Shown: positions 10,770-32,458 of the stretch, piece by piece
How positions within the stretch are numbered: position 1 is the stretch's first letter
How the letters are laid out: each line of letters begins with the position of its first letter
Origin: a virus
Taxonomy: Duplodnaviria; Caudoviricetes
DNA: 35,656 bases
IMG/VR virus record: IMGVR_UViG_3300036783_000146
Coordinates: 1-35,656 of that record
Strand: one strand, 5' to 3'
Notes under the pieces: generated by a model
What the model was told of the DNA's origin: nothing
Database searches by the model: none
Seen by the model: the letters and a program-made list of their open reading frames with translations, nothing else
Position numbers and translations under genes: made by a program

Positions 10770-10988
10770 ATGACAAGGCGCAGAACACATCACCGCCGCG
10801 AATCGCCGGAACTGGTCATGCTGGCAGAAATCAATCAGCGCCTGGTGCGCATTGAGTCCAACATTGACCAGGTCAAGGAAATTGCCACCCGTAATGGGGC
10901 GATCTCCGGTGCGGTAGCGGGCACGGTATCTGGTGGCCTGGTAGCAACAGGCATTTACCTCATCAAAGCACGTCTGGGGCTGGGCTGA
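10770..10988 (+). CDS. Small hypothetical membrane protein
   Basis: AGGAG RBS. C-terminal GAISGAVAGTVSGGLV hydrophobic segment. Coupled to terS. Confidence 0.75.
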   Translation: MTRRRTHHRRESPELVMLAEINQRLVRIESNIDQVKEIATRNGAISGAVAGTVSGGLVATGIYLIKARLGLG

Positions 10989-11491
10989 TGGCATACGGGC
11001 CGGAGGTTCGTGACCGGTTACGCCGGGCCTATGTGTTCGATGGTCTCTCGCTTGAGGTGGCCTCGGCACAGCTTGGTATTTCCTACGGCACCGCCCAGCG
11101 CTGGAAGAACGAAGCCAAGGGGGCCGGGGATGATTGGGAAAAGGTAAAAGCGGCCAGGCTAATGGCAGGCGGCGGCCTGGAAGAACTTTCCCGCGCCATG
11201 CTGGCCGGGTTGGTTACACAGTTTCAGAGCACGATGGACGCCCTGGCCTACGGCAAGGTCGAATTGCCCCCCGAGGAACGGGTGAAACTGCTGGGGAGCT
11301 TGTCGGATGCCTACAACAAGGCGATCAGCGCCAGTAAAAAGGTACTTCCGGAGACCAGCCAGTTAGCCACCGCCCTGGAGGTTATGCAGCAGTTTGCCGC
11401 ATTCATCAAAGAGCACTATCCGCAACATATGCAGGCGTTTGCGGACATTCTAGAGCCGTTTGGGCATGAGATAGAGAGGATTTATGGGTAA
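10988..11491 (+). CDS. terS: Terminase small subunit (DUF1804-like)
   Basis: HTH (YVFDGLSLEVASAQLGISYGTAQRWK) and GDDWEK motif. Upstream of terL. Confidence 0.85.
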   Translation: MAYGPEVRDRLRRAYVFDGLSLEVASAQLGISYGTAQRWKNEAKGAGDDWEKVKAARLMAGGGLEELSRAMLAGLVTQFQSTMDALAYGKVELPPEERVKLLGSLSDAYNKAISASKKVLPETSQLATALEVMQQFAAFIKEHYPQHMQAFADILEPFGHEIERIYG

Positions 11492-11807
11492 GTTAATTTG
11501 TATTGATATCGATTACTACATTGCCGCCTCGCAGATTGCCAGGGTGCGCATGGATCATGATGGTGTGGCGCAGGCCGTTATCGTCACCACGCTGCAGGGG
11601 TCGGAACATCTGGCTATCCCGCAAGGGGATGAGACCGCCACTGATACGCTTAACCGGATTGTGGCCGAGGTCAATTATCCCCCGTCTTTCGAAATGGCTT
11701 ATCCCCCGCCGATTTCTCTTTCCGTAAGCAGCAACGGGGTAGAAGTCATGCAGGAATGGATCAAGGCTAACAAAGCTGAAATCAGGGCAATCCTGGGTCG
11801 GAAATAA
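11484..11807 (+). CDS. 107-aa protein with a tape-measure-like C-terminal helix
   Basis: GAGAGGA RBS. Overlaps the terS end. Last 26 aa share 11 identities with the last 26 aa of the TMP. Confidence 0.75.
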   Translation: MGKLICIDIDYYIAASQIARVRMDHDGVAQAVIVTTLQGSEHLAIPQGDETATDTLNRIVAEVNYPPSFEMAYPPPISLSVSSNGVEVMQEWIKANKAEIRAILGRK

Positions 11808-11825
11808 CATCTTGGTAGAGCAAGG

Positions 11826-11850
11826 CAGGTAGCCAAACGTTGGCTACCTG
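11826..11850. terminator. Perfect hairpin between convergent genes (probable moron terminator)
   Basis: CAGGTAGCCAA-ACG-TTGGCTACCTG, 11-bp stem. Weak U-tract. Confidence 0.55.
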
Positions 11851-11890
11851 GTAACACATCATCGATGGAAGACGCAGCATGACAGCTCAA

Positions 11891-12352
11891 TCACTCAGGA
11901 ATACCGCCCCCCAGGCAAGCCGCGAGCTTTTCCCGGCTCGTGAGCGTGGCATCTTTCTTGAATCCCAACGCGATGCAGGCCCGCAGACGTGCCGGGTTGC
12001 ACAACAGCGTATTAATCTGGCTGTCGTTCTCTTCAATTTTGTGCAGTTGAGCCTGGGCCTCATCGTGATCGAGTTTATCCAGGGTGTCACACAGCATTTT
12101 GTAACGGTGGGCCTGCAGCTTGGCATGGCCTGCCGCCGCACCTGGCTTATACGCCAGTTGAGCCGCCGAAATAGCGGCGATCAGAAAGCCGATAAGCCAT
12201 CCGTAGGCACTATCAGCAAAAACGGACGCCCCCAGCAGGAACTGACAAAAGCAAAGAAAGCGATCAATTCTCTGGTTCAACGTACCGGTCATCACTTCCA
12301 GGTAATAGCTGTAATGGGCGGTCAACTTCAGTGTATCGGATGGCTTGGACAT
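11891..12352 (-). CDS. Antisense moron: 2-TM membrane protein, SLATT-like architecture
   Basis: AGGAG RBS. Helix (YSYYLE..RIDR), two adjacent TMs (FLCFCQFLLGASVFA / WLIGFLIAAISAAQLAY), then PG..A..AK..A.RYK.L and a helical tail. Confidence 0.75.
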   Translation of the reverse strand: MSKPSDTLKLTAHYSYYLEVMTGTLNQRIDRFLCFCQFLLGASVFADSAYGWLIGFLIAAISAAQLAYKPGAAAGHAKLQAHRYKMLCDTLDKLDHDEAQAQLHKIEENDSQINTLLCNPARLRACIALGFKKDATLTSREKLAACLGGGIPE

Positions 12353-12359
12353 GACTTAC

Positions 12360-12500
12360 TTACTCCTGTTTGCCGTCGTCTGGCTCCTCCTCCTTTCCAG
12401 GATTGTAGGGCCGATGAATGGCATGTAGTGGAACGGCATCTTCTGGCATTCGTTGCTTGCCGTCAGCAATACCGTAATCATTTTCGTTGTCACCAGACAT
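12360..12500 (-). CDS. 46-aa acidic peptide, first gene of the antisense moron
   Basis: AAAGGAG RBS then ATG 12500: MSGDNENDYGIADGKQRMPEDAVPLHAIHRPYNPGKEEEPDDGKQE*. Stop lies 7 nt before the next ATG. Confidence 0.6.
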   Translation of the reverse strand: MSGDNENDYGIADGKQRMPEDAVPLHAIHRPYNPGKEEEPDDGKQE

Positions 12501-12527
12501 GGTGGCATCTCCTTTGTGTGGGTGGGT

Positions 12528-12581
12528 TTTTCTGTCCGTTTCCCCTGCGACGGTTTGCCGGACAGAAAATAAGCTATCACA
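12528..12581 (-). promoter_or_regulatory. Candidate extended -10 promoter and 5'-UTR hairpin of the moron
   Basis: Minus strand TGTGATAGCTT (12581-12571; TGn-TAGCTT). Inverted repeat TTTTCTGTCCG (12528-12538) / CGGACAGAAAA (12559-12569). Confidence 0.5.
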
Positions 12582-12647
12582 AAACCATGCGCCGGACATG
12601 GGTAAAAACCGGCAAACTTTTCTCCCCTCTAGCGAGTGCATGTTGAT

Positions 12648-14444
12648 ATGACCAAGTTTACCGGGCGCGAATTCCTCAAAGAGCTAGCGGAACTCAAACG
12701 CGCACTGCGCAAAGATATCCAGGCGCACGGCACCGGTCTTGATCCATCGCCGGAGGCCGTCAGAGAACGTCGCTGCCGCGTGCTGGGCGGTGATTTTACC
12801 TTTTTTGCCTATACCTATTTCCCGCACCATATCCGAGGTGAGCAGTCGCTGTTTCACGCGCACTTCTGCCAGCGCTTTCCGCAGCTCCTGCAGCGCCCTG
12901 GCGGCGCGGCTGAGTGGTGGATAGCGCCACGCGGGGAGGCGAAATCCTCGCTGTTGACCAAAATTGGCCCGGTATGGTGTGCCGTTCAGGGGCTGCATCA
13001 ACGCGCCGACGTCCGCGCCGAACTCGGGCTAACCCATGAGCCACTCCCCGCGTTTATTGATTACATCATCTTGCTGGGCGCAGAAACCAAACTGCCTACC
13101 AAGCTGCTGGAAGTGGTCAAAACCGAGCTGACGGTGAATGCAGCCCTGGCGTTAGATTTCCCCGAAGCCTGCGGCAGAACGGGGCAATGGAAAATCGGCG
13201 AATTCACCACCCGCACCGGCGTAAAAGTGGAATCCTTTGGTGCAGAGCAGGCGATTCGAGGCACGTTTCACGGGGCAAGTCGCCCCAAATTGCTGCTGGG
13301 CGATGACCTGATCACTGACGCCGAAGCCAAATCCCCAACAGAGCGACAAAACCGCTGGGATTGGGTCTCCAAGGCTATCGAATACCTTGGCCCGCCTGAT
13401 GGTTCGGTGAAATACCTGGGCGTAGGCACGGTATTAAACAAAGATGACCCTATCAGCCGCGCCAAACGCACCATTGGCCATGTGGTGCATCACTTCCGCG
13501 CCATTGTGACCTTGCCCACTCATATGGACTTGTGGGAGCAGTGCCAGGAACTGATGCTGAATGACGACAAGCGGGCCGAAGAAGCCGCCGCAGAGCAAAA
13601 GTTAGACTTGGATCAGCTCTTTTTACCGTCTTACCAGTTTTATCTGGCCAACCGCGCCATGATGGATGAAGGGGCGGTGACCTCCTGGCCTGTCGTTCGT
13701 CCGCTCTATTGGCTGATGCGCCAACGGGCGAAGAACGGCAAAGCCTTTGCCACGGAAATGCAGGGTGACCCCAGAACGGATGAGGATCGCACCTTCATCA
13801 ATATCCAGTTCTGGCAGCAACGCTCCCGTGACTGGTTGAATTTCGGCGCGTGTGACCCGTCCATGGGCAGAGGGGAAACCTCTGACCCCTCGGCTATCCT
13901 GGTCGGTGGTTGGGACAGAGAACGCAGCCGCTTGCATGTGATATACGCCGAAATCAAGCGCCGCCTGATTTCCAAGCTGGAAGCGGATTTAATCGCCGTT
14001 CAACGGCAGTTTAATTGTCAGGCAATCGGCTTTGAAAACAATAACGCGTATGAACATTCCCGCTCAACCTTTGTGAAAGCGGGGTTGCGTAAAGGAGTGG
14101 CATTGCCTTTGGTGGGGGTGACGGCCAGCGTGCCGCTTGAGGTGCGTGTTGACTCAATGGAGCCGTTCATCAATGACCAGCTCAACCCCAGCATTCTCTT
14201 TCATCCGGCCTTAATACTGTTGCTTTCCGAGTTGGACACCTGGCCAGAACCTCAGACCGGTCATCACTATGATGGCCTGTCAGCATTACACATTCTCTGG
14301 ATGATTGCGGTATCGCGTGGCGGTGGCCGCTTTGCCTGGGAGCCGATGCCGCGACCGGGTGAACGTGTCAGGCGCGGAGAGTATGAGGACGATTTTGACG
14401 ATGATAACGCCGAGGATAGCAGCGGCTTTGGATTAAGGTGGTAA
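12648..14444 (+). CDS. terL: Terminase large subunit
   Basis: Walker A-like APRGEAKS, Walker B LLLGDDL, VGTVL coupling motif, nuclease ACDPS and HYDGLSAL. Confidence 0.92.
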   Translation: MTKFTGREFLKELAELKRALRKDIQAHGTGLDPSPEAVRERRCRVLGGDFTFFAYTYFPHHIRGEQSLFHAHFCQRFPQLLQRPGGAAEWWIAPRGEAKSSLLTKIGPVWCAVQGLHQRADVRAELGLTHEPLPAFIDYIILLGAETKLPTKLLEVVKTELTVNAALALDFPEACGRTGQWKIGEFTTRTGVKVESFGAEQAIRGTFHGASRPKLLLGDDLITDAEAKSPTERQNRWDWVSKAIEYLGPPDGSVKYLGVGTVLNKDDPISRAKRTIGHVVHHFRAIVTLPTHMDLWEQCQELMLNDDKRAEEAAAEQKLDLDQLFLPSYQFYLANRAMMDEGAVTSWPVVRPLYWLMRQRAKNGKAFATEMQGDPRTDEDRTFINIQFWQQRSRDWLNFGACDPSMGRGETSDPSAILVGGWDRERSRLHVIYAEIKRRLISKLEADLIAVQRQFNCQAIGFENNNAYEHSRSTFVKAGLRKGVALPLVGVTASVPLEVRVDSMEPFINDQLNPSILFHPALILLLSELDTWPEPQTGHHYDGLSALHILWMIAVSRGGGRFAWEPMPRPGERVRRGEYEDDFDDDNAEDSSGFGLRW

Positions 14445-20028: not shown

Positions 20029-20077
20029 CTCAGTCTGACCAATAACGTTGCGCCTCCGGGCGCAACTGGAGCACGTA

Positions 20078-20695
20078 ATGAAAAAACCAAAAACAGTGAC
20101 TGATGCCGTTGATCAAAGCGAGAACACCGCACCCGTTGTGGTTGTCGATGGTGTTGATCTAGCGAAGATCATTGCGCCGGTGACCGATGGTGTTGACCAG
20201 GTGCAGACCATCGCGCCAGTGACCGATGGCGTTGACCAGGTGCAGACCATCGCGCCGGTGACCGATGGCGTTGACCAGGTACAGACCATCGCGCCAGTGA
20301 CCGATGGCGTTGACCAGGTGCAGACCATCACGCCAGTGACCGAGGGCGTTGACCAGGTGCAGACCATCGCGCCGGTGACCGATGGCGTTGACCAGGTACA
20401 GACCATCGCGCCGGTGACCGATGGCGTTGACCAGGTACAGACCATCGCGCCGGTGACCGATGGCGTTGACCAGGTGCAGGGCACCACGTCGGTCATCGGG
20501 GGCGTTGACCAGGATAAACCTGGATCATGGTTTACCGTGCAGGTGGTGAAGTCTCCGGCAGGCAAACGAACTCGTGCCGGGATGAGCTTCACCTCATCGG
20601 TTTCTGATCCAATTGATTTCAGCACATTGACTGACGCACAGATTGAGGCGCTGGCCAGTGATCCGTACCTGCGTATCAAGCCGTTCAAGGGGTAA
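20078..20695 (+). CDS. Mu gp35/HI1506-like protein with a 13-aa tandem repeat
   Basis: GGAG RBS, ATG 20078. C-terminal RAGMSF...LTDAQIEALASDPYL. Confidence 0.75.
   Translation: MKKPKTVTDAVDQSENTAPVVVVDGVDLAKIIAPVTDGVDQVQTIAPVTDGVDQVQTIAPVTDGVDQVQTIAPVTDGVDQVQTITPVTEGVDQVQTIAPVTDGVDQVQTIAPVTDGVDQVQTIAPVTDGVDQVQGTTSVIGGVDQDKPGSWFTVQVVKSPAGKRTRAGMSFTSSVSDPIDFSTLTDAQIEALASDPYLRIKPFKG
20171..20482 (+). repeat. Coding VNTR, 8 x 39 bp (IAPVTDGVDQVQT)
   Basis: Near-identical head-to-tail units ATCGCGCCRGTGACCGATGGCGTTGACCAGGTRCAGACC, with degenerate units on both sides. Confidence 0.95.
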
Positions 20696-21773: not shown

Positions 21774-22525
21774 TGTCTACAACACCAGAGACGTATTACT
21801 ACGGCCAGGGCAAAGTCTACCTGGCGTTGCGTGATGCTTACGGTCGTCCCCTGGCTCGCCGTTGGGTGGGTGACGTCAGCGATCTGGCCGTTGCGTTATC
21901 GTCCGAAAGCTTTACTCACAAAGAGAGCTATAGCACGTTCCGTGCCCCCGTTCGACGCATTAACACCGGTAATGAGGCAACGGTAACAGCAACCTGGTAC
22001 GAGCATTCACCTGAAAACTTGGCGATCTTGTTGTATGGCGAACAGGTTGTGACGCCAGCGGGAACCGTTACCGGGGAGGCATTGCCAACCGGTATCAAAG
22101 CTGGGGAGCGATACACGTTAGAGCATCAGAACGTCACCGACGTCGAGATTGGTGCATTAGTCCCGGATACGGATTTCACTGTCGATCCTGTCTTTGGAGC
22201 CATTGAGTTTATCACCACCCCAACGGGGTCACCGACTGTCAGTTATAGCCATGCCAGCAGTATCGATACCAGTATGTTTACCCAGAGTCCGGTAGAGCTG
22301 GCATTGCGCTATGAAGGCATCAATATGGCGGAGAACGGTGCGCCGGTGATTGTCGAACTGTACAAAGTGGTCTTTGATCCTGCGTCTGCGCTAAACCTCA
22401 TCAATACGGACACCTCATTGCCAGGACTGGAGACCACGGCGGGCATCTTGCTGGATACGGCGCGGCCTTCTGATGCCAAGTTAGGGCGCTATGGCCGGAT
22501 CACTCATGTCGGGAGCATTACCTAA
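21773..22525 (+). CDS. Major tail tube protein (siphophage type)
   Basis: YYYGQGKVYL...RWVGDVS...HKES...ENLAILLYG...LRYEGIN...VELYK. Precedes the chaperones and TMP, with no sheath gene. Confidence 0.8.
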   Translation: MSTTPETYYYGQGKVYLALRDAYGRPLARRWVGDVSDLAVALSSESFTHKESYSTFRAPVRRINTGNEATVTATWYEHSPENLAILLYGEQVVTPAGTVTGEALPTGIKAGERYTLEHQNVTDVEIGALVPDTDFTVDPVFGAIEFITTPTGSPTVSYSHASSIDTSMFTQSPVELALRYEGINMAENGAPVIVELYKVVFDPASALNLINTDTSLPGLETTAGILLDTARPSDAKLGRYGRITHVGSIT

Positions 22526-22998
22526 TGGCGGATGAGCTGGACATTCTGATGCCGGAGCGGACGCTGCCAGTGAACGGCGTCCAGCTCACGGTGCATGAGT
22601 ACACCCTGGCGGAGCAATTACAGCACCGCCGCCCACTCAAGGCCATCAGTGAGGGCTTGGCGGAGGCGATGAATGCCAATCCCGATGCCGAGGTGTCGAT
22701 TGAGGAATTGTTTGACGTCCTGGGTGAGCGTTGGGATGCGGTCGTGCAGGCGGTAGCCATCGCCTGCAATCAAACGCCTGAATGGGTTGCCGACTTGACC
22801 GGTGCGGACGGCGAGAGCCTGTTGCTGACCTGGTGGGGGGTGAATGCCGATTTTTTTACCCGGAACGCCATTCGGCCCGCCCTGGCAAGGCTGGTGCATC
22901 AACTGCAAAGCCCGCCGAGTGGGGAGACATCTTCTGTTGTCTCATCGACCACGGGCACCGGTTCGGCGACCTCAAGCACTATACCGCCCGCCAGTTGA
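22525..22998 (+). CDS. Tail assembly chaperone (gpG-like)
   Basis: Lies between tail tube and TMP. LLLTWWGVNADFF. Confidence 0.75.
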   Translation: MADELDILMPERTLPVNGVQLTVHEYTLAEQLQHRRPLKAISEGLAEAMNANPDAEVSIEELFDVLGERWDAVVQAVAIACNQTPEWVADLTGADGESLLLTWWGVNADFFTRNAIRPALARLVHQLQSPPSGETSSVVSSTTGTGSATSSTIPPAS

Positions 22999-23138
22999 AG
23001 TTGTTCTATGACCAGGCGCAGCAACGAGAACTCACGGCCCGGATGAACCAGACCCTTGACGGTTACACCAGCTTTGCGGGAGGGAAAACGTTGAAGGGCT
23101 ATATCGACAAGTTTAAACAGGCTTTAAAGCTGCGTTAA
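22851..23138 (+). CDS. Tail assembly chaperone extension (gpT-like), probably reached by -1 frameshift; start approximate
   Basis: The -1 frame encodes WGDIFCCLIDHGHRFGDLKHYTARQLKLF. In-frame slippery candidate T TTT TTT at 22851-22857. Confidence 0.6.
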   Translation, partial: FFYPERHSARPGKAGASTAKPAEWGDIFCCLIDHGHRFGDLKHYTARQLKLFYDQAQQRELTARMNQTLDGYTSFAGGKTLKGYIDKFKQALKLR

Positions 23139-23200: not shown

Positions 23201-26200
23201 ATGGCAAGCGGCAACGGCAATCTGGAACTGCGCCTGCGTATCCAGGCTGACTTAAAGAATGCGCAAAACTCACTCAAACAGTTTGAGGACGCGTTGAGCG
23301 GGGCTAGCCAGAGCGGTGCCAAGCTTGCCCAATCCGGTCATGCAGCGTCTGGCGGTCTCGATCAGGTTGGCCGTTCTGCAGACAGTGCCAACCAGAAGTT
23401 GAACAAGACCGAGTCCAATATTGATGCGGTGGGCAGCCAATTGGCCCGCCTGAAAACCCTGGCGGGGGCCGTCACCGGCCTGGCCCTGGGTGGGGGGATA
23501 TTATCGAACCTGGCCAGCACGGCGGACGAGTACACCAACCTGGCAGCCCGTATTCGCCTGGTGTCTACCTCAAACGAGCAAGCCGGTACATCATTCAAGT
23601 CAGTGATTAACCTGGCCAGTGCGACCGGGCAAACCATTTCTGCCACTGCCGAACTGTATACTCGCATGGCGCGATCACTGAAAGGCAGCGCCAGCCAGAC
23701 CGAGTTACTGCAGGTGACCAGCGTGATCAACAAGGCCGCTGTTGTCTCCGGGGCCACTGCGCAAGAATCCAGTAATGCCATTATCCAGTTAAGCCAGGGG
23801 TTGGCCTCCGGCACGTTGCGCGGTGAAGAGTTTAACTCTGTCGCTGAACAGATGCCGCGCATTATGGAAATGCTGGAAAAATCCCTGGGTAAAACGCGTG
23901 GCGAACTCCGCGCTATGGCAGAAAAGGGGCTGTTAACGACACAGGTCGTGTTTAAGGCGTTGAAAGACGGGGCCAGTGATGTGGATCAGGAATTTGCCCA
24001 GATGCCCCTCACCATTGCCCGTGCATCTACCGAGATGGCCAACGCCTGGGTGGAGTTCGTCGGCGGCACCAATGATGCCCTGGGGGCATCAAAAGCCATT
24101 GCTGCCGTTATCTCTGGTCTGGCAGGTAACCTTTCCACCCTGACTACAGCGGCAATTGCCCTCGCAGTTGTCATGGGGGGCCGTAAGGTAGCCGCAATGG
24201 TGAGCGCAACCCAGGCGACACGCAGCAACCGGGTAGAGACCCTGCAGTTAGCTGAGGCGGAATATGCGGAAGCTAAAGCCGCCGTGGCAGCAGCGCAAGC
24301 CGAAAGTGCGCGGGCTAAGACCTCCGGCATCACGACGCCTGGGGCCAGAGCCAAAGCCGAGGATGCGTTGACGGCTTCCCTGGTACGTCAGACCGCAGCA
24401 GAAAAAGCGTTGGGGGTAGCGCGGGCGTCAGCGTCTACGTTCGGACGCCTTGGCACAGGGTTGATGGGGCTATTAGGTGGCCCAATGGGGTTGGCCATTA
24501 CAGGGGTTACTCTGGCCGTTGGCGGTCTCAGTGCCGCTTATGCTTCGAACAAAGAGCATGAGGCTGCGCTGGTGCAGCAGCATCAACAGACCATCCAGAC
24601 CCTGGACGATCAACGCCAGAAAACAGAATCGCTGATTGATGCCCAGGGCCGTCTTAAAGGCACGGTAAGCACCGGCGATGCCCTCACCCAGCAGCGCACC
24701 AATACGGACGTGCTTACCGAGGACAGTAAAAAGTTAAGCGATCTGCAGAGCCAGGCGGCAACGCTGAAAATGCAACTAGATGCCCTGGAGAGCAGCCCGA
24801 ACGAGAGCGGGCTGGGGATCATGAGGTTTGCTAAACGTCTGGAAGCCGTACAAAAACAGATTGAGGAACTGACGCCCAAATTCGACAACCTGACGGATGC
24901 CCAGGGAAAACTCTCTGACGAGTTGGATAATCGTTTAACCCGCGCCTTTGATGCAACCCAAGCTAGCGGTAAAACCTTACGCCAGGTGTTTACTGAGTTG
25001 CAGAACGCCGGGCCAGTCGATTGGGCAAATGAGATTGTTCCCCGCCTTACCGCGAGTGAGCAGTCTTTTGCCTCGTTGAGCGCTGAAGCCGATAAGCTAA
25101 AACCCAAGCTTGAGAAAGAACTGGCCGATGCCACCTATACCGCTGTACAGCAATTGGAGCAACTGCGTGATAAAACCATCGCCGCTGCCCTTGCAGCAGG
25201 CCAGGCTCCGGCAGATATCGACAAACTGCGTGAAAGCCTAGAAAAACTGATTAATCTGCAAAAACAGACCGATCAGGCAAAAGAGAACAAGCGCCAGGCC
25301 ACGGCGGCGGCCAGTGCGGCGAAGTCAGCGGCCAAAGCCAGTGAGACCTATGTGCAAGGGTTGGAAAAACAAGCCTTTGCCGTAGGGAAAACCAAGGCCC
25401 AGGTCACGGCCTACGAATTGGCGGAAAAAGGCTTGACGGGTGCGCTTAAAGCCCGTGCCGAAGCGGCGATGGCGGTGATTGCAGCGGGTGAACAAAAAGA
25501 GAAAGCGGACGCCAACGCCATCAAAAATACCCAACTGCAGGCGCAATACCTCAAGGCCACCGGGGATGTGCTGGGCGGTGGCCTGGCAGACGTCCGCGCC
25601 AATATCGCAGAGATGCGCAAAGAGTTTACCAAAACAGGCAACACAGAGGGATTGGCCTGGCTGGATAAGTTGTTGCCGGTGCAGGAAGCCAAGGTGAGAG
25701 CCGATGCGCTGAAAAAGAGCCTGGATGACCTGCAGACCTACCGCAGCCAGAAAGAAAGCAGTATCCAGGCGCAGGTGCAGGCCGGGCTGATTTCCGAGCT
25801 GCAGGGCCGTCGCCAGTTGGTTGCCCTGCACCAGGAAGTTGGCAACAAAATCACCGGGTACTTACCGCAGTTACGCCAGATGGCCACGCTGCCCGGAGAG
25901 GCGGGCGAGCAGATGCGCGAACTGCTGGCCAGCCTCGAAACCGAGTTGATCACCCTCAAATCCACCACCGATGACCTGACAGCCGCGTTTAAAGATGGCC
26001 TGCAGGACGGTATGGAAAGCACTCTTAACGGTATTGCTAACGGTACTTTAAACCTCAGTGATGCGGTGATGAACCTGGCCAAGTCCGTGGTCAATGCCAT
26101 GGCACAGGTCGCCTCACGTAATTTGGCCGGGGTGGCCATGGAGGGATTGGGCAGCGTGACCGATAGCCTCAAGGGGCTGTTTGGTATGGGAGCCAGTGCG

Positions 26201-26944
26201 GCCACCAGTGCGACAGGATCGGCTGTCAGTACAGCGGCCAATACTGCTGTCAATACGGCAACCACCACCGCCGCAGATGCTACAGGGGCGACCACCTATG
26301 CCACGGCCATCACCACCGCCTCGACCGCTGGGGCCACAGCGATGGGGACGTCAATCACAACCGGCAGTGCCGCCTTAACCACCGGGTTTACCACCGCCTT
26401 TACCACGGGAGTGACAGCACTCACCACCGCCTTGACGGCGGCGTTCACTACGGGTGCGGCTACGTTGGCCTCGGCGATAGCGTCCGCCAGTGCAGCCGGG
26501 GGCGCGAGTTCAGGTCTCGGCGCTGCGGCCAGTGTGGCGGCGGCGACCGGTGGCCAGGTTATTGGGCCAGGCACCGGCACGTCAGACAGCATCACCGCCC
26601 GTCTCTCTAACGGTGAGTTTGTCATGCAAACGGCAGCAGTGAATCACTACGGTGCGGACTTTATGCACTCACTGAACCAGCGCAAGTTGGGCACGTTCGC
26701 CAGCGGTGGCTTGGTCTCCGATCCAGGGTTTACCCGTGCGCCAGACGTGAACCAATCGGTCAATCAAAGTGATGCTGGGCGGGATGCAGGAAATGCTACC
26801 GCGCCAACGCTGCAGCAGTATTTAGTCCTCGATCCTAATGACGTGCTGGATAAAGCCGTGAAAAGTGCGCCTGGCAACCGCGTGATGATGACCTGGGTCA
26901 AATCGAATACAGCCACCCTCAAACAGATGCTGGGGGTGAAGTAA
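23201..26944 (+). CDS. Tape measure protein
   Basis: 1247 aa, Ala-rich. Tape-measure N-terminal domain (QLSQGLASGTLRGEEFNSVAEQMP). C-terminal ATGGQVIGPGTGTSDSITARLSNGEFV. Confidence 0.95.
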   Translation: MASGNGNLELRLRIQADLKNAQNSLKQFEDALSGASQSGAKLAQSGHAASGGLDQVGRSADSANQKLNKTESNIDAVGSQLARLKTLAGAVTGLALGGGILSNLASTADEYTNLAARIRLVSTSNEQAGTSFKSVINLASATGQTISATAELYTRMARSLKGSASQTELLQVTSVINKAAVVSGATAQESSNAIIQLSQGLASGTLRGEEFNSVAEQMPRIMEMLEKSLGKTRGELRAMAEKGLLTTQVVFKALKDGASDVDQEFAQMPLTIARASTEMANAWVEFVGGTNDALGASKAIAAVISGLAGNLSTLTTAAIALAVVMGGRKVAAMVSATQATRSNRVETLQLAEAEYAEAKAAVAAAQAESARAKTSGITTPGARAKAEDALTASLVRQTAAEKALGVARASASTFGRLGTGLMGLLGGPMGLAITGVTLAVGGLSAAYASNKEHEAALVQQHQQTIQTLDDQRQKTESLIDAQGRLKGTVSTGDALTQQRTNTDVLTEDSKKLSDLQSQAATLKMQLDALESSPNESGLGIMRFAKRLEAVQKQIEELTPKFDNLTDAQGKLSDELDNRLTRAFDATQASGKTLRQVFTELQNAGPVDWANEIVPRLTASEQSFASLSAEADKLKPKLEKELADATYTAVQQLEQLRDKTIAAALAAGQAPADIDKLRESLEKLINLQKQTDQAKENKRQATAAASAAKSAAKASETYVQGLEKQAFAVGKTKAQVTAYELAEKGLTGALKARAEAAMAVIAAGEQKEKADANAIKNTQLQAQYLKATGDVLGGGLADVRANIAEMRKEFTKTGNTEGLAWLDKLLPVQEAKVRADALKKSLDDLQTYRSQKESSIQAQVQAGLISELQGRRQLVALHQEVGNKITGYLPQLRQMATLPGEAGEQMRELLASLETELITLKSTTDDLTAAFKDGLQDGMESTLNGIANGTLNLSDAVMNLAKSVVNAMAQVASRNLAGVAMEGLGSVTDSLKGLFGMGASAATSATGSAVSTAANTAVNTATTTAADATGATTYATAITTASTAGATAMGTSITTGSAALTTGFTTAFTTGVTALTTALTAAFTTGAATLASAIASASAAGGASSGLGAAASVAAATGGQVIGPGTGTSDSITARLSNGEFVMQTAAVNHYGADFMHSLNQRKLGTFASGGLVSDPGFTRAPDVNQSVNQSDAGRDAGNATAPTLQQYLVLDPNDVLDKAVKSAPGNRVMMTWVKSNTATLKQMLGVK

Positions 26945-29374: not shown

Positions 29375-31661
29375 AGGGGGATCATCTAAAACAACTGTGG
29401 GGTATCGGTACTTCTGGGATATTCAGTCCGGGTTAGGCCGTGGCCCGGTCAATGAGATTGTGGCCATCAGCGCTGACAAGAAAACCGTCTTTGCGGGGAC
29501 ACCTGGCGAAGTGACCGGCAACACAACAATCACTATCGACAAGCCCGACCTGTTTGGCGGCGAGGACACCGGAGGCGAAGGCGGCATTCAAGGCAGTTTG
29601 GACATTATGATGGGTGGCCCTGATCAAGTACCTACACCTAAGTTGCTAACGTTGCTCACTGGGCTGGTGCCAGGCTTTCGCGGCCTGGTCACCACGTTTT
29701 TCAGCGGCCTGGTCAGTTGCTACAGCGCCTCACCTAAGCCCTGGTCATATCGCGTTCGCCGTACAACCAAAGGCTGGAACAACAACGCGCCATGGTATCC
29801 AGAGAAAGCCCTCATACTCCTGGAGAACGCCGAGGGGCAGCTCGACGACGAAGCGAAACTGACGCCTGAGCAAGTGGCCAACCTGCGGGCGATCCACGCC
29901 ATGAACCCTGCGCATATCCTTGTTCAGTGTGCCATAGACAAGGATTGGGGGCGTCAACTGACACTGGCAGACCTGGACATAGACAGCTATCGAGCGGCGG
30001 CTGATCAGCTGTATGCAGAGGGGTTTGGTTTGTGCTTTCGCTACAACCGCCAGGACGACTTAGACACGTTCATACAGCAAATCCTTGACCATATCGGTGC
30101 GGCGCAATATGGAAACCTGAGCACGGGCAAGTTAACGCTCAAGTTGTTACGCGACGATTATGACCCAGACGCCTTGCCAGTGTTCACTTACGACAACGGC
30201 ATTATTGGCGTGCAGGATGATGACAGCACCAGCGCCGATGCAGCCCCCAATGAAATGGTGGTCACCTTCCATGACCCGGTCACCAATAGTGACGGGGAGG
30301 TACGCGCTCAAAACCTGGGGGCGATCCAGTCTGTTGGGTTGATATCCAGCAACGTGGAATACAAAGCCATCCCCACCCATGCATTAGCCGCCAGGGTCGC
30401 CCAGCGTGACCTGGAGACCAGTGCCGCCGGACTCACTCGCCTGGTGATCGAATTCGACCGGCGCGGTGGCGTTCTGGCACCTGCCAGCGTCTTTCGTATC
30501 AGTCTCCCCGACCGCAACATTACCAATATGGTGCTACGCGTGGGGAAGATTGAGGAACAGGAATCGGGCGGCCTGAAGGTCACAGCGGTGCAGGATGTGT
30601 TCGGCTTGCCTGCCACGTCTTACAGCAGCGGTGACCAGGGTAGCGCCTGGACGCCACCAGACAAAACGGCCCGCCCTGTCACGGATAGCCAACTGATCGA
30701 GCTGCCTTACATTGTCCTGGCGGCCAACTTGACTGCTATGGAATTGGCAGCGGTTCCTGATGAAGCGGGTTACCTGGGCGTGATGGCGACAGCCCCCACC
30801 AGTACCACCATGAATTATCAAATACAGACCCGCTCTGATGGGGTTCATTGGCTTGGTACAAGTAATGGTGACTGGACACCAACCGTGATGTTAACCGAGG
30901 CGGTAGGACGTTTTAATAACGTCTTTAAAGCAGCATTAACGACGCTTCCCACCATCGGTACAGGAGCCATTATTGATAATGAATTAGTGCGGATTGACGG
31001 GGTGAACTTGGTCAACGGGACGCTCACTGTAGGGCGTGCCTGTGGGGATACATTGCCCGCCGAACATGCAGTCGGAGCGAGAGTAAGGTTTATCCAAAAC
31101 GCTATAGAGGGCGATAACCGAGAATATCTTGCAGGGGAAAGCATAGACGTAAGGTTAATTACGCGAACGTCACAACAGACGCTAAATCCTGCTCTGGCAC
31201 CTATCAAGCATTTAACGTTTTTAGCTCGCCAGGCAAGACCTTATTTACCCGGAAACATTCGTTTAAATGACGAACTCTATCCCCTCGTTGCCGAACCTGC
31301 AGCGGATTATATTTTAACCTGGTCACACCGTGACAGACAATTGCAAGCTGACCGGTTAATTGATTTTCTCGAAAGCAGCATTGGCCCAGAGTTGGGGGTG
31401 GATTATGTGATTACTCTCATGAATGCCTCTACCCAGCAAATTGTATGGACAGAGACCACCATAGAGGATGCGGTGATACTGCCTTATTCAACAGCGGATA
31501 GCCCCGATAATGTGAAACATACAGTCACAATTAATGCTGTAAGAGGCGATCTCGAATCACTGAATGAATGGGTTGTTACGTTACCGGCTGGCCATTATGT
31601 CCCTACTATCCCACCGGAGCCAGAGCTGTCACCGGCAGAGCCAGAAGGCGGTAGCGCATGA
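29364..31661 (+). CDS. Central tail tip / baseplate hub protein (gpJ-like)
   Basis: MGGKGG..TVGYRY, MNPAHIL, AADQLYAEGFGLC, LKLLRDDYD, VAQRDL, AVQDVFGLP. Confidence 0.85.
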   Translation: MGGKGGSSKTTVGYRYFWDIQSGLGRGPVNEIVAISADKKTVFAGTPGEVTGNTTITIDKPDLFGGEDTGGEGGIQGSLDIMMGGPDQVPTPKLLTLLTGLVPGFRGLVTTFFSGLVSCYSASPKPWSYRVRRTTKGWNNNAPWYPEKALILLENAEGQLDDEAKLTPEQVANLRAIHAMNPAHILVQCAIDKDWGRQLTLADLDIDSYRAAADQLYAEGFGLCFRYNRQDDLDTFIQQILDHIGAAQYGNLSTGKLTLKLLRDDYDPDALPVFTYDNGIIGVQDDDSTSADAAPNEMVVTFHDPVTNSDGEVRAQNLGAIQSVGLISSNVEYKAIPTHALAARVAQRDLETSAAGLTRLVIEFDRRGGVLAPASVFRISLPDRNITNMVLRVGKIEEQESGGLKVTAVQDVFGLPATSYSSGDQGSAWTPPDKTARPVTDSQLIELPYIVLAANLTAMELAAVPDEAGYLGVMATAPTSTTMNYQIQTRSDGVHWLGTSNGDWTPTVMLTEAVGRFNNVFKAALTTLPTIGTGAIIDNELVRIDGVNLVNGTLTVGRACGDTLPAEHAVGARVRFIQNAIEGDNREYLAGESIDVRLITRTSQQTLNPALAPIKHLTFLARQARPYLPGNIRLNDELYPLVAEPAADYILTWSHRDRQLQADRLIDFLESSIGPELGVDYVITLMNASTQQIVWTETTIEDAVILPYSTADSPDNVKHTVTINAVRGDLESLNEWVVTLPAGHYVPTIPPEPELSPAEPEGGSA

Positions 31662-32458
31662 GTCACTATTATTATGGACAAGGGAAAGTATTTCTGGCTC
31701 GTCGCAATGCGGCGGGCCAGCCTTTGTCCTGGCGTTGGGTAGGTGATGTATCCTCTCTGACGCTAGAGTTGGAGTTTGAAGATAAAAATACCAAGGCATC
31801 AGTGGGGGGGCAATTAGTCTCGACACAACGTTATATTACAGCCGTAGGTGGGAAAGTAACATCAACCTGGCATGAGTTGTTGGTAAGTAATCTCGAGCTG
31901 GTGCTAAATTCTGCGTCTGTAGTTGAACCATTTTCAATCCATGCAACACATCAATTGCCAGTAGATATCGTTGAAGGTGATGTTTTCTCGTTGCCCCATA
32001 CAACCGTTTTTAATGTGGATATTGCTGGACTGGAAAATAACATTGACTATAAAGTTGATCTACAGTGGGGAATGATTGAATTTATTACTACACCTGCTAA
32101 TACCGTTTATCAGGTTAGTTATGAACACCTTCAAAACCAAAGCCTGCCGCTATTTACGTCTCAACCAGTAGAGCTATCCCTCCGCTATCAGGGGGTGAAT
32201 ATGGCGGAGGGCAACACTCCCGTATTGGTTGAACTTTATAGACTGGTTTTAGACCCGCTCGCAACCTTTGAGTTGATTAATACTGGTGATAGTTTGGCTG
32301 AACTGGAAACTACAGCACAAATGCTGGCGGACTTTGCACAAAATAAATCTGCTGAGTTTGGCTATTTTGGTCGAGTTCAGTTAGTTAAGCGTCAGTCGGC
32401 GCTAACGTATAATGGCAAGGCCAAATATAATGGCCGCCATAAATTCAGGGGATTTTAA
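31658..32458 (+). CDS. Second, diverged paralogue of the tail tube protein
   Basis: YYYGQGKVFL...RWVGDVS...MIEFITTP...VSY.H...FT.QPVEL.LRY.G.NMAE...PV.VELY, collinear with 21773-22525. Has an extra C-terminal LTYNGKAKYNGRHKFRGF. Confidence 0.85.
   Translation: MSHYYYGQGKVFLARRNAAGQPLSWRWVGDVSSLTLELEFEDKNTKASVGGQLVSTQRYITAVGGKVTSTWHELLVSNLELVLNSASVVEPFSIHATHQLPVDIVEGDVFSLPHTTVFNVDIAGLENNIDYKVDLQWGMIEFITTPANTVYQVSYEHLQNQSLPLFTSQPVELSLRYQGVNMAEGNTPVLVELYRLVLDPLATFELINTGDSLAELETTAQMLADFAQNKSAEFGYFGRVQLVKRQSALTYNGKAKYNGRHKFRGF

Follow-up and report, generated by a model that had tools for sequence, protein, structure and literature searches.

A candidate decoy between the terminase genes of a Mu-like siphophage: a small protein whose C-terminus resembles that of the tape-measure protein

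Introduction

Why does a small protein encoded next to the terminase genes of a Mu-like phage end in a helix that resembles the end of this same phage's tape-measure protein (TMP)? The question is raised by the ORF 11484-11807 of the virus record IMGVR_UViG_3300036783_000146 (Duplodnaviria, Caudoviricetes), whose whole stretch of 35,656 nucleotides was analysed and is referred to here as the window. A preliminary description of this DNA had reported a match of 26 residues between the C-termini of the ORF and the TMP, had read the protein as a small beta-rich domain joined to a helix by a Pro-rich linker, and had considered the gene as coupled to the small terminase gene terS. It had also related the locus to the tail assembly blocker (Tab) systems and proposed that the helix titrates the product of the neighbouring antisense moron.

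Results

The window and its terS-terL slot

The window is a complete-looking record of a Mu-like transposable siphophage, with genes for a transposase, a small terminase of the DUF1804 family, a Mu portal, a protease, a gpT capsid protein, a TMP_3 tape measure and a BR0599 hub. Judged by terS, the annotated phages nearest to it are VW-6B (69%) and Kp4852-3 (68%). The hub protein matches the PDB entries 8VJH and 8RK3, which we take to be the hub proteins of phages Chi and JBD30. In the right flank, a DeoR gene shares 83.6% identity with one copy in E. coli, and the host is therefore likely enterobacterial. Elsewhere in the window, the major-tail-protein family is represented a second time, in the tail-tip region (31658-32458, plus strand; phrog_807, E 1.8e-53), as in VW-6B; an ORF of the head region (20048-20695, plus strand) contains an internal repeat-rich stretch with a weak match to the Lysostaphin_N repeat; and the tail assembly chaperone is followed by an overlapping frame (22525-23138, plus strand; phrog_8022) in the usual frameshift arrangement.

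Table 1. Position, strand and supporting evidence of the features discussed in the text.
Feature	Position	Strand	Evidence
Small terminase terS (DUF1804)	10988..11491	+	PF08822, E 3.5e-55; 60.5% identity with the gene upstream of atab in JBD24
ORF, N-terminal domain (residues 1-64)	11484..11675	+	phrog_19649 family, PHROG E 1.9e-7 over residues 1-65
ORF, Pro-rich linker (residues 65-81)	11676..11726	+	Sequence; varies between alleles
ORF, helix mimicking the TMP C-terminus (residues 82-107), with the stop codon	11727..11807	+	Alignment, BLASTP, profiles
Perfect 11-bp inverted repeat between the convergent genes	11826..11850	.	Intergenic RNA fold; possible terminator or processing hairpin (putative)
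Antisense moron, 153 aa, all-helical, two hydrophobic helices	11891..12352	-	phrog_6315, PHROG E 1.9e-35; AF2
Acidic leader ORF, 46 aa, travelling with the moron	12360..12500	-	Small counterparts precede the moron in other loci
Conserved upstream element of the cassette	12498..12620	-	GCCGG..CCGGC inverted repeat and extended -10-like motif; putative promoter
Large terminase terL, closing the variable slot	12636..14444	+	phmmer to the annotated terL of VW-6B and JBD24
TMP C-terminal helix, the mimicked element	26864..26944 (TMP 23201-26944)	+	PF20155, phrog_2335

The start of the ORF overlaps terS by 8 nt, in agreement with the coupling claimed earlier, and no sigma-70-like site was detected in 11400-12800. 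In phage JBD26 the interval between terS and terL contains atab, on the plus strand and overlapping terS, and tab, on the minus strand (PMC10884400). The ORF thus occupies the slot that holds tab/atab in JBD26, and the relation drawn earlier to this type of locus stands. The slot also holds tab/atab in JBD24; in relatives it contains homologues of Rip1, another convergent pair of small genes, methylase-like genes, or nothing. The terS-terL interval is a variable defence hot spot.

The other convergent pair is found in L021 (3089-3513), in L099 (9207-9500 and the facing gene) and in part in L033 (3087-3308). It is composed of a plus-strand gene of 73 aa and an antisense gene of 60-62 aa with overlapping 3' ends, a layout like that of atab/tab, which its sequences resemble only faintly, and represents a candidate new defence/counter-defence pair. 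A reading of the L021/L099 antisense gene as a second Tab-like protein was considered and is weak, with an hhalign probability of 0.6% against Tab and 7% against anti-Tab. In L098 and L099 the cassettes are stacked: between terS and terL, the short domain is present a second time, in tandem with several morons. In Mu-like myophages (L040, L042, L046, L089 and L093), the slot is occupied by a recurring family of antisense morons of 170-210 aa.

The C-terminus of the ORF and the end of the tape measure

The C-termini of the ORF and the TMP align without gaps over their last 26 residues, 11 of which are identical, and the coordinates, sequences and identity count reported earlier were all correct (the paired segments of Table 1 include the stop codons). 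The replacements include I/V, A/S, I/L, R/K and I/M, and both proteins terminate in LGxK-stop. BLASTP of the ORF against the TMP gave 17 positives out of 26 with an E value of 3e-4, a pairwise value that emerged after looking over many gene pairs. When the ORF was shuffled 2,000 times and compared with the whole TMP, the ungapped score of 58 was reached once; it was reached by none of 200,000 shuffles preserving the hydrophobic/polar pattern, the latter in a fixed register picked after the match was seen; the match survives both of these controls, of the kind that the preliminary description had named. Among the 459 six-frame segments of the window listed, the runner-up scored 44. The DNA of the two segments is identical at just 40 of 81 bases and at 9 of 27 third positions, and therefore the ORF helix is not a recent duplication of the TMP end; its origin probably lies in an old duplication or in convergence.

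Nineteen TMP ends of the window's tail type were gathered, and profiles were built with and without the five that belong to the window's clade. The profile restricted to the 14 outside TMP ends serves as a guard against an after-the-fact test. With the HMM of these 14 sequences, the ORF helix outranked all other non-TMP sequences in a set of 20,118 distinct ORFs and proteins (E 0.009), so that a comparison with TMP C-termini suggested at the outset places the helix above every non-TMP. With an ungapped PSSM of 25 columns, the ORF scored 25.1 bits and the allele P0002 22.6 bits, the best background score being 16.3 bits; the allele P0004 obtained 9.5 bits (rank 109), inside the background. Judged by four tests on the sequences, the mimicry is real, statistically solid and beyond chance.

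The element that is copied has a known position in a related tail. In JBD30, the last 33 residues of the TMP form a trimeric coiled coil in the core of the baseplate, where their hydrophobic residues are buried, and the residues K1149, R1151 and Q1152 contact the upper baseplate protein (PMC11445458). On this TMP, the ORF helix corresponds to approximately residues 1136-1158 and lacks the preceding Met-bearing turn; the mapping used the L027 TMP, of 1,158 residues, whose numbering fits the cited JBD30 residues. The positions kept in the mimic helix are the hydrophobic ones, together with G, N and LG.

Architecture, family and alleles of the ORF

The AF2 model of the ORF (mean pLDDT 78) contains five strands and a helix over residues 4-64, then a linker without structure, and helices at the C-terminus (residues 83-103), which agrees with the earlier reading of the domains. 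Structure comparisons with the ORF yielded only weak PH-like and FlbD-like rows, none of them at E<=0.001, and a PDB profile search with the alignment A3 recovered DARPin and ankyrin proteins that were taken as noise.

By profile match and by its position after terS, the ORF belongs to phrog_19649, a widespread post-terminase domain of 65 residues for which the profile search recovered 84 members. Since 79 of the 84 members are at most 78 aa long and, apart from P0001 and P0002, none scores on the TMP-end PSSM, the helix and linker represent an add-on to a common domain. In the 11 other phages or prophages whose loci were inspected, the short form, without helix, is present in the terS-terL interval (best score 10.1 bits), and 13 further loci of the family, one of them a duplicate, reached at most 11.5 bits. 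Four relatives (L007, L008, L018 and L020) have only the short form and yet possess TMP ends nearly identical to that of the window, which suggests that the helix is dispensable for building this tail.

The three long alleles (P0001, P0002 and P0004) share 61-63 of the 64 residues of the domain (95-98%), 4-9 of the 17 residues of the linker and 10-13 of the 26 residues of the helix; P0002, which scores in the TMP range, shares 13 of 26. The helix of each best matches the TMP ends of the window's clade, the window's own TMP ranking 2, 1 and 1 among the 19 TMP ends for P0001, P0002 and P0004, respectively. Rapid change of a helix that retains its target is the pattern expected in conflict. P0003, on a contig of 979 bases, is a shorter form of P0004. 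The known helix-bearing sequences number only three, of common ancestry, with genome context for one. Searches of genome contigs and viral contigs, and of phages at both the DNA and the protein level, detected no further helix-bearing locus, nor did a search of 401 genomes with the alignment A1. Metagenomes gave no such locus and one unrelated locus, E. coli genomes gave only a terS match, and the 1.8-billion search added only P0006, which lacks the helix, and four repeat proteins.

The neighbouring antisense moron

The moron that faces the ORF is preceded by its leader ORF, and similar small ORFs lie upstream of the moron in L098, L099, L100, L112, L114, L115 and L116. With nhmmer, the upstream element was found before the moron in L098-L115 and before a second antisense gene in L099. 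It is common to different antisense morons of Mu-like and P2-like phages and may represent a portable moron promoter and recombination site; the element and the cassette leader have no Rfam match and no canonical sigma-70 site. For the protein itself, a lead to SLATT is weak: the Atlas SLATT_4 cluster score was 0.89 and the family is annotated on 12% of the members, no Pfam hit was obtained at E 10 for six homologues, and PADLOC gave no hit for the moron. The fold search gave nothing at E<=0.001.

The proposal that this moron is the titrated factor is not supported. Its helix/moron co-occurrence was found in the window only among 26 moron loci: within up to 1.5 kb per side, none of the 25 others contains a TMP-end-like stretch, the best score being 12.0 bits against 25.1 for the ORF. 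This count includes 14 near-duplicate P2-like copies (L101-L113 and L115) and excludes the six genome loci L202-L207. In L098, a 7.5-kb fragment that ends short of its TMP, a moron 85% identical to that of the window faces a version of the ORF without helix. L099 is a 93%-complete provirus in which a moron 74% identical occupies the same slot and the TMP end is identical to that of the window at 14 of 26 positions; no mimic was detected in the 19.6 of 33 kb scanned. Three annotated homologues of the moron were inspected, all of them early-region genes of P2-like myophages or of a lambdoid phage. The moron is thus common without the mimic, L098 and L099 included, and does not need the helix.

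The sequencing runs X2 and X5, from close relatives of the window, contain fragments of the helix region as well as of the moron. No contig bridges ORF and moron among the contigs of eight of the 12 listed runs, of which the coverage is partial. In X12 the sequence diverges just after terS, and the leader and the start of the moron are on a separate, unbridged contig.

Comparison with known systems

The locus resembles Tab/anti-Tab in its layout: in a Mu-like siphophage, the terS-terL interval has a plus-strand gene coupled to terS and, facing it, an antisense moron. In addition, the tail tips of the window and of JBD26, the Tab/anti-Tab phage, are related. The link made earlier between Tab and the TMP agrees with the literature, where Tab acts through the TMP's C-terminal region and sensitivity in JBD26 maps beyond residue 856; the same paper proposes recognition of the TMP by Tab and counter-defence by binding, and gives no interface (PMC10884400). 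The proteins themselves differ. The ORF overlaps terS by 8 nt versus 1 nt for anti-Tab (JBD26 gp30), with which it has no phmmer hit at E 1e-3 and no BLASTP hit at E 1, and in the lack of a sequence match to gp30 it was ruled out as an anti-Tab homologue. A phmmer search with Tab matched L006 and L017 only and nothing in the window, and the moron matches neither Tab nor anti-Tab by BLASTP or phmmer. Unlike tab/atab, the convergent genes of the window do not overlap at their 3' ends and, unlike Tab, the moron is a protein of 153 aa with two transmembrane segments that is present elsewhere without a partner. In a convergent defence/counter-defence pair the defence gene always comes with its counter-defence gene; here the moron had such a companion in none of the 25 other loci, as seen in L099.

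Tab and anti-Tab were themselves considered as mimics of a TMP end, and neither is supported, anti-Tab scoring 0.2 bits on the TMP-end profile. Near its C-terminus, anti-Tab (L017:1378-1629) has a stretch of 10 residues similar to the end of the JBD24 TMP, a likeness that 35 of 1,000 shuffles attain; its likeness to the JBD26 TMP end is attained by 573 of 1,000. The words "mimic" and "decoy" do not occur in the available text of PMC10884400.

Mimicry of a tail protein is represented by DSAD1, a small phage protein that inhibits DSR2 by occupying its binding pocket (PMC10973363). The ORF shares with DSAD1-type decoys the resemblance to a putative recognised element, here the TMP end. Unlike the ORF, in which this mimicry is visible in the sequence, DSAD1 mimics the tail tube protein, and by structure (PMC10973363). 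Tai/Ati, which combines an antisense defence gene in the late operon with a late-made counter-defence gene, is similar to the present locus as proposed earlier, and differs from it in the target of Tai, which is the central tail fibre or needle (PMC11364771).

Rip1 (PDB 9OOX) occupies the same terS-terL slot, beside the short form of the ORF, in L007, L020 and L098, and is absent from the window. It senses rings of portal or small terminase and not the TMP (PMC13434031). The L020 homologue matches 9OOX with E 8.6e-18, and related genes were found in L007, L098, L024-L027 and L092. These homologues (L007:11742-12248, L020:2955-3461 and L098:89-829), in VW-6B-like phages, often come directly after a short phrog_19649 gene, a candidate counter-defence.

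Finally, SNIPE and Avs18 are host defences that recognise TMPs, of a type that a decoy could absorb. Avs18 binds a central segment of 130 residues, and escapes from SNIPE map to TMP residues 100-150 (10.1101/2025.11.03.685801; PMC13581612); these contact regions are N-terminal or central, unlike the terminal helix copied by the ORF.

Discussion

The locus combines a modular protein, a terS overlap, a divergence of alleles confined to linker and helix, and a slot used by Tab and by Rip1 homologues. We tentatively propose, at somewhat less than an even chance, that the helix is a late-made decoy against a TMP-tip-binding defence encoded in the host or in a rival prophage. The ORF would be made with the late operon through its coupling to terS, and its helix would occupy a candidate defence protein that binds unassembled TMP ends. 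This factor is predicted to be encoded in trans, by the host or a rival prophage and not by the neighbouring moron, and the decoy would let tails form, protecting their assembly. This reading is plausible because TMP-directed defences exist (Tab, SNIPE and Avs18) and has a precedent in DSAD1, which mimics a tail protein and neutralises a defence. By analogy, the ORF would likely work as a DSAD1-type decoy in a Tab-type locus, outside the anti-Tab family. A literature search, in which subscription journals were thinly covered, recovered no paper describing a TMP-end decoy.

Several points count against the decoy. The known TMP-directed defences map elsewhere than the terminal helix. For Tab, the last 53 residues of the TMP are identical in the sensitive JBD26 (L017:13388-16948) and the insensitive JBD16C (L011:12835-16533), which places the specificity determinant upstream of the terminal helix. 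In addition, a trimer-forming helix present as a free copy could harm the phage's own tail assembly, and the background score of P0004 would likewise speak against a maintained mimic.

An action of the helix on tail assembly appears rather unlikely to us. It would form bundles with TMP ends as these are made, or take a place in the lumen of the baseplate, as a pacing placeholder or as a poison for the tails of competing related phages. The conservation in the mimic of hydrophobic positions buried in the JBD30 trimer, its extension over the stretch that touches the upper baseplate protein, and the tracking of the TMP of the window's clade by every allele all fit such a role, but close relatives make the same tail without the helix. 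The coupling to terS and the lack of a sigma-70-like site in 11400-12800 furthermore point to a lytic-only product, and a poison would then hit the phage itself.

About as unlikely is a helix without any mimicry role: a piece left by an old duplication, or an amphipathic tail that arose by convergence, serving some unrelated purpose (oligomerisation, contact with a membrane or a protease). The match is short (26 aa), it emerged from many gene pairs, its third-position DNA identity is near background and one allele has decayed to a background score. Against this, the match holds up when shuffles preserve the pattern and when an independent profile is used, it lies at the very C-terminal end of each protein, and another allele, with just 13 of 26 residues identical, still scores in the TMP range.

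The preliminary proposal, in which the adjacent two-transmembrane moron senses the TMP tip and kills or blocks, and the helix titrates it for self-immunity on induction, is the least probable: the convergent layout like tab/atab and tai/ati and the joint presence of helix and moron pieces in X2 and X5 speak for it, and allele-specific sensing, or antisense silencing as proposed for Tai (PMC11364771), could account for L098 and L099, but the moron loci without mimic and the early-region homologues stand against it.

With the decoy as the tentatively preferred reading, a wider proposal can be formulated, which we regard as possible with the chances rather against it: Mu-like siphophages would use, as fast-evolving decoys, small late proteins onto which copies of their own TMP tip have been grafted, and an undescribed class of defences would grab the terminal helix of the TMP before it docks in the baseplate. 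A natural copy of this helix in a defence hot spot points to the helix as a contested surface. If the decoy is true, the ORF is a ready-made bait for finding a defence factor that binds the TMP tip, and a general screen is suggested for small phage genes that copy the structural termini of the same phage.
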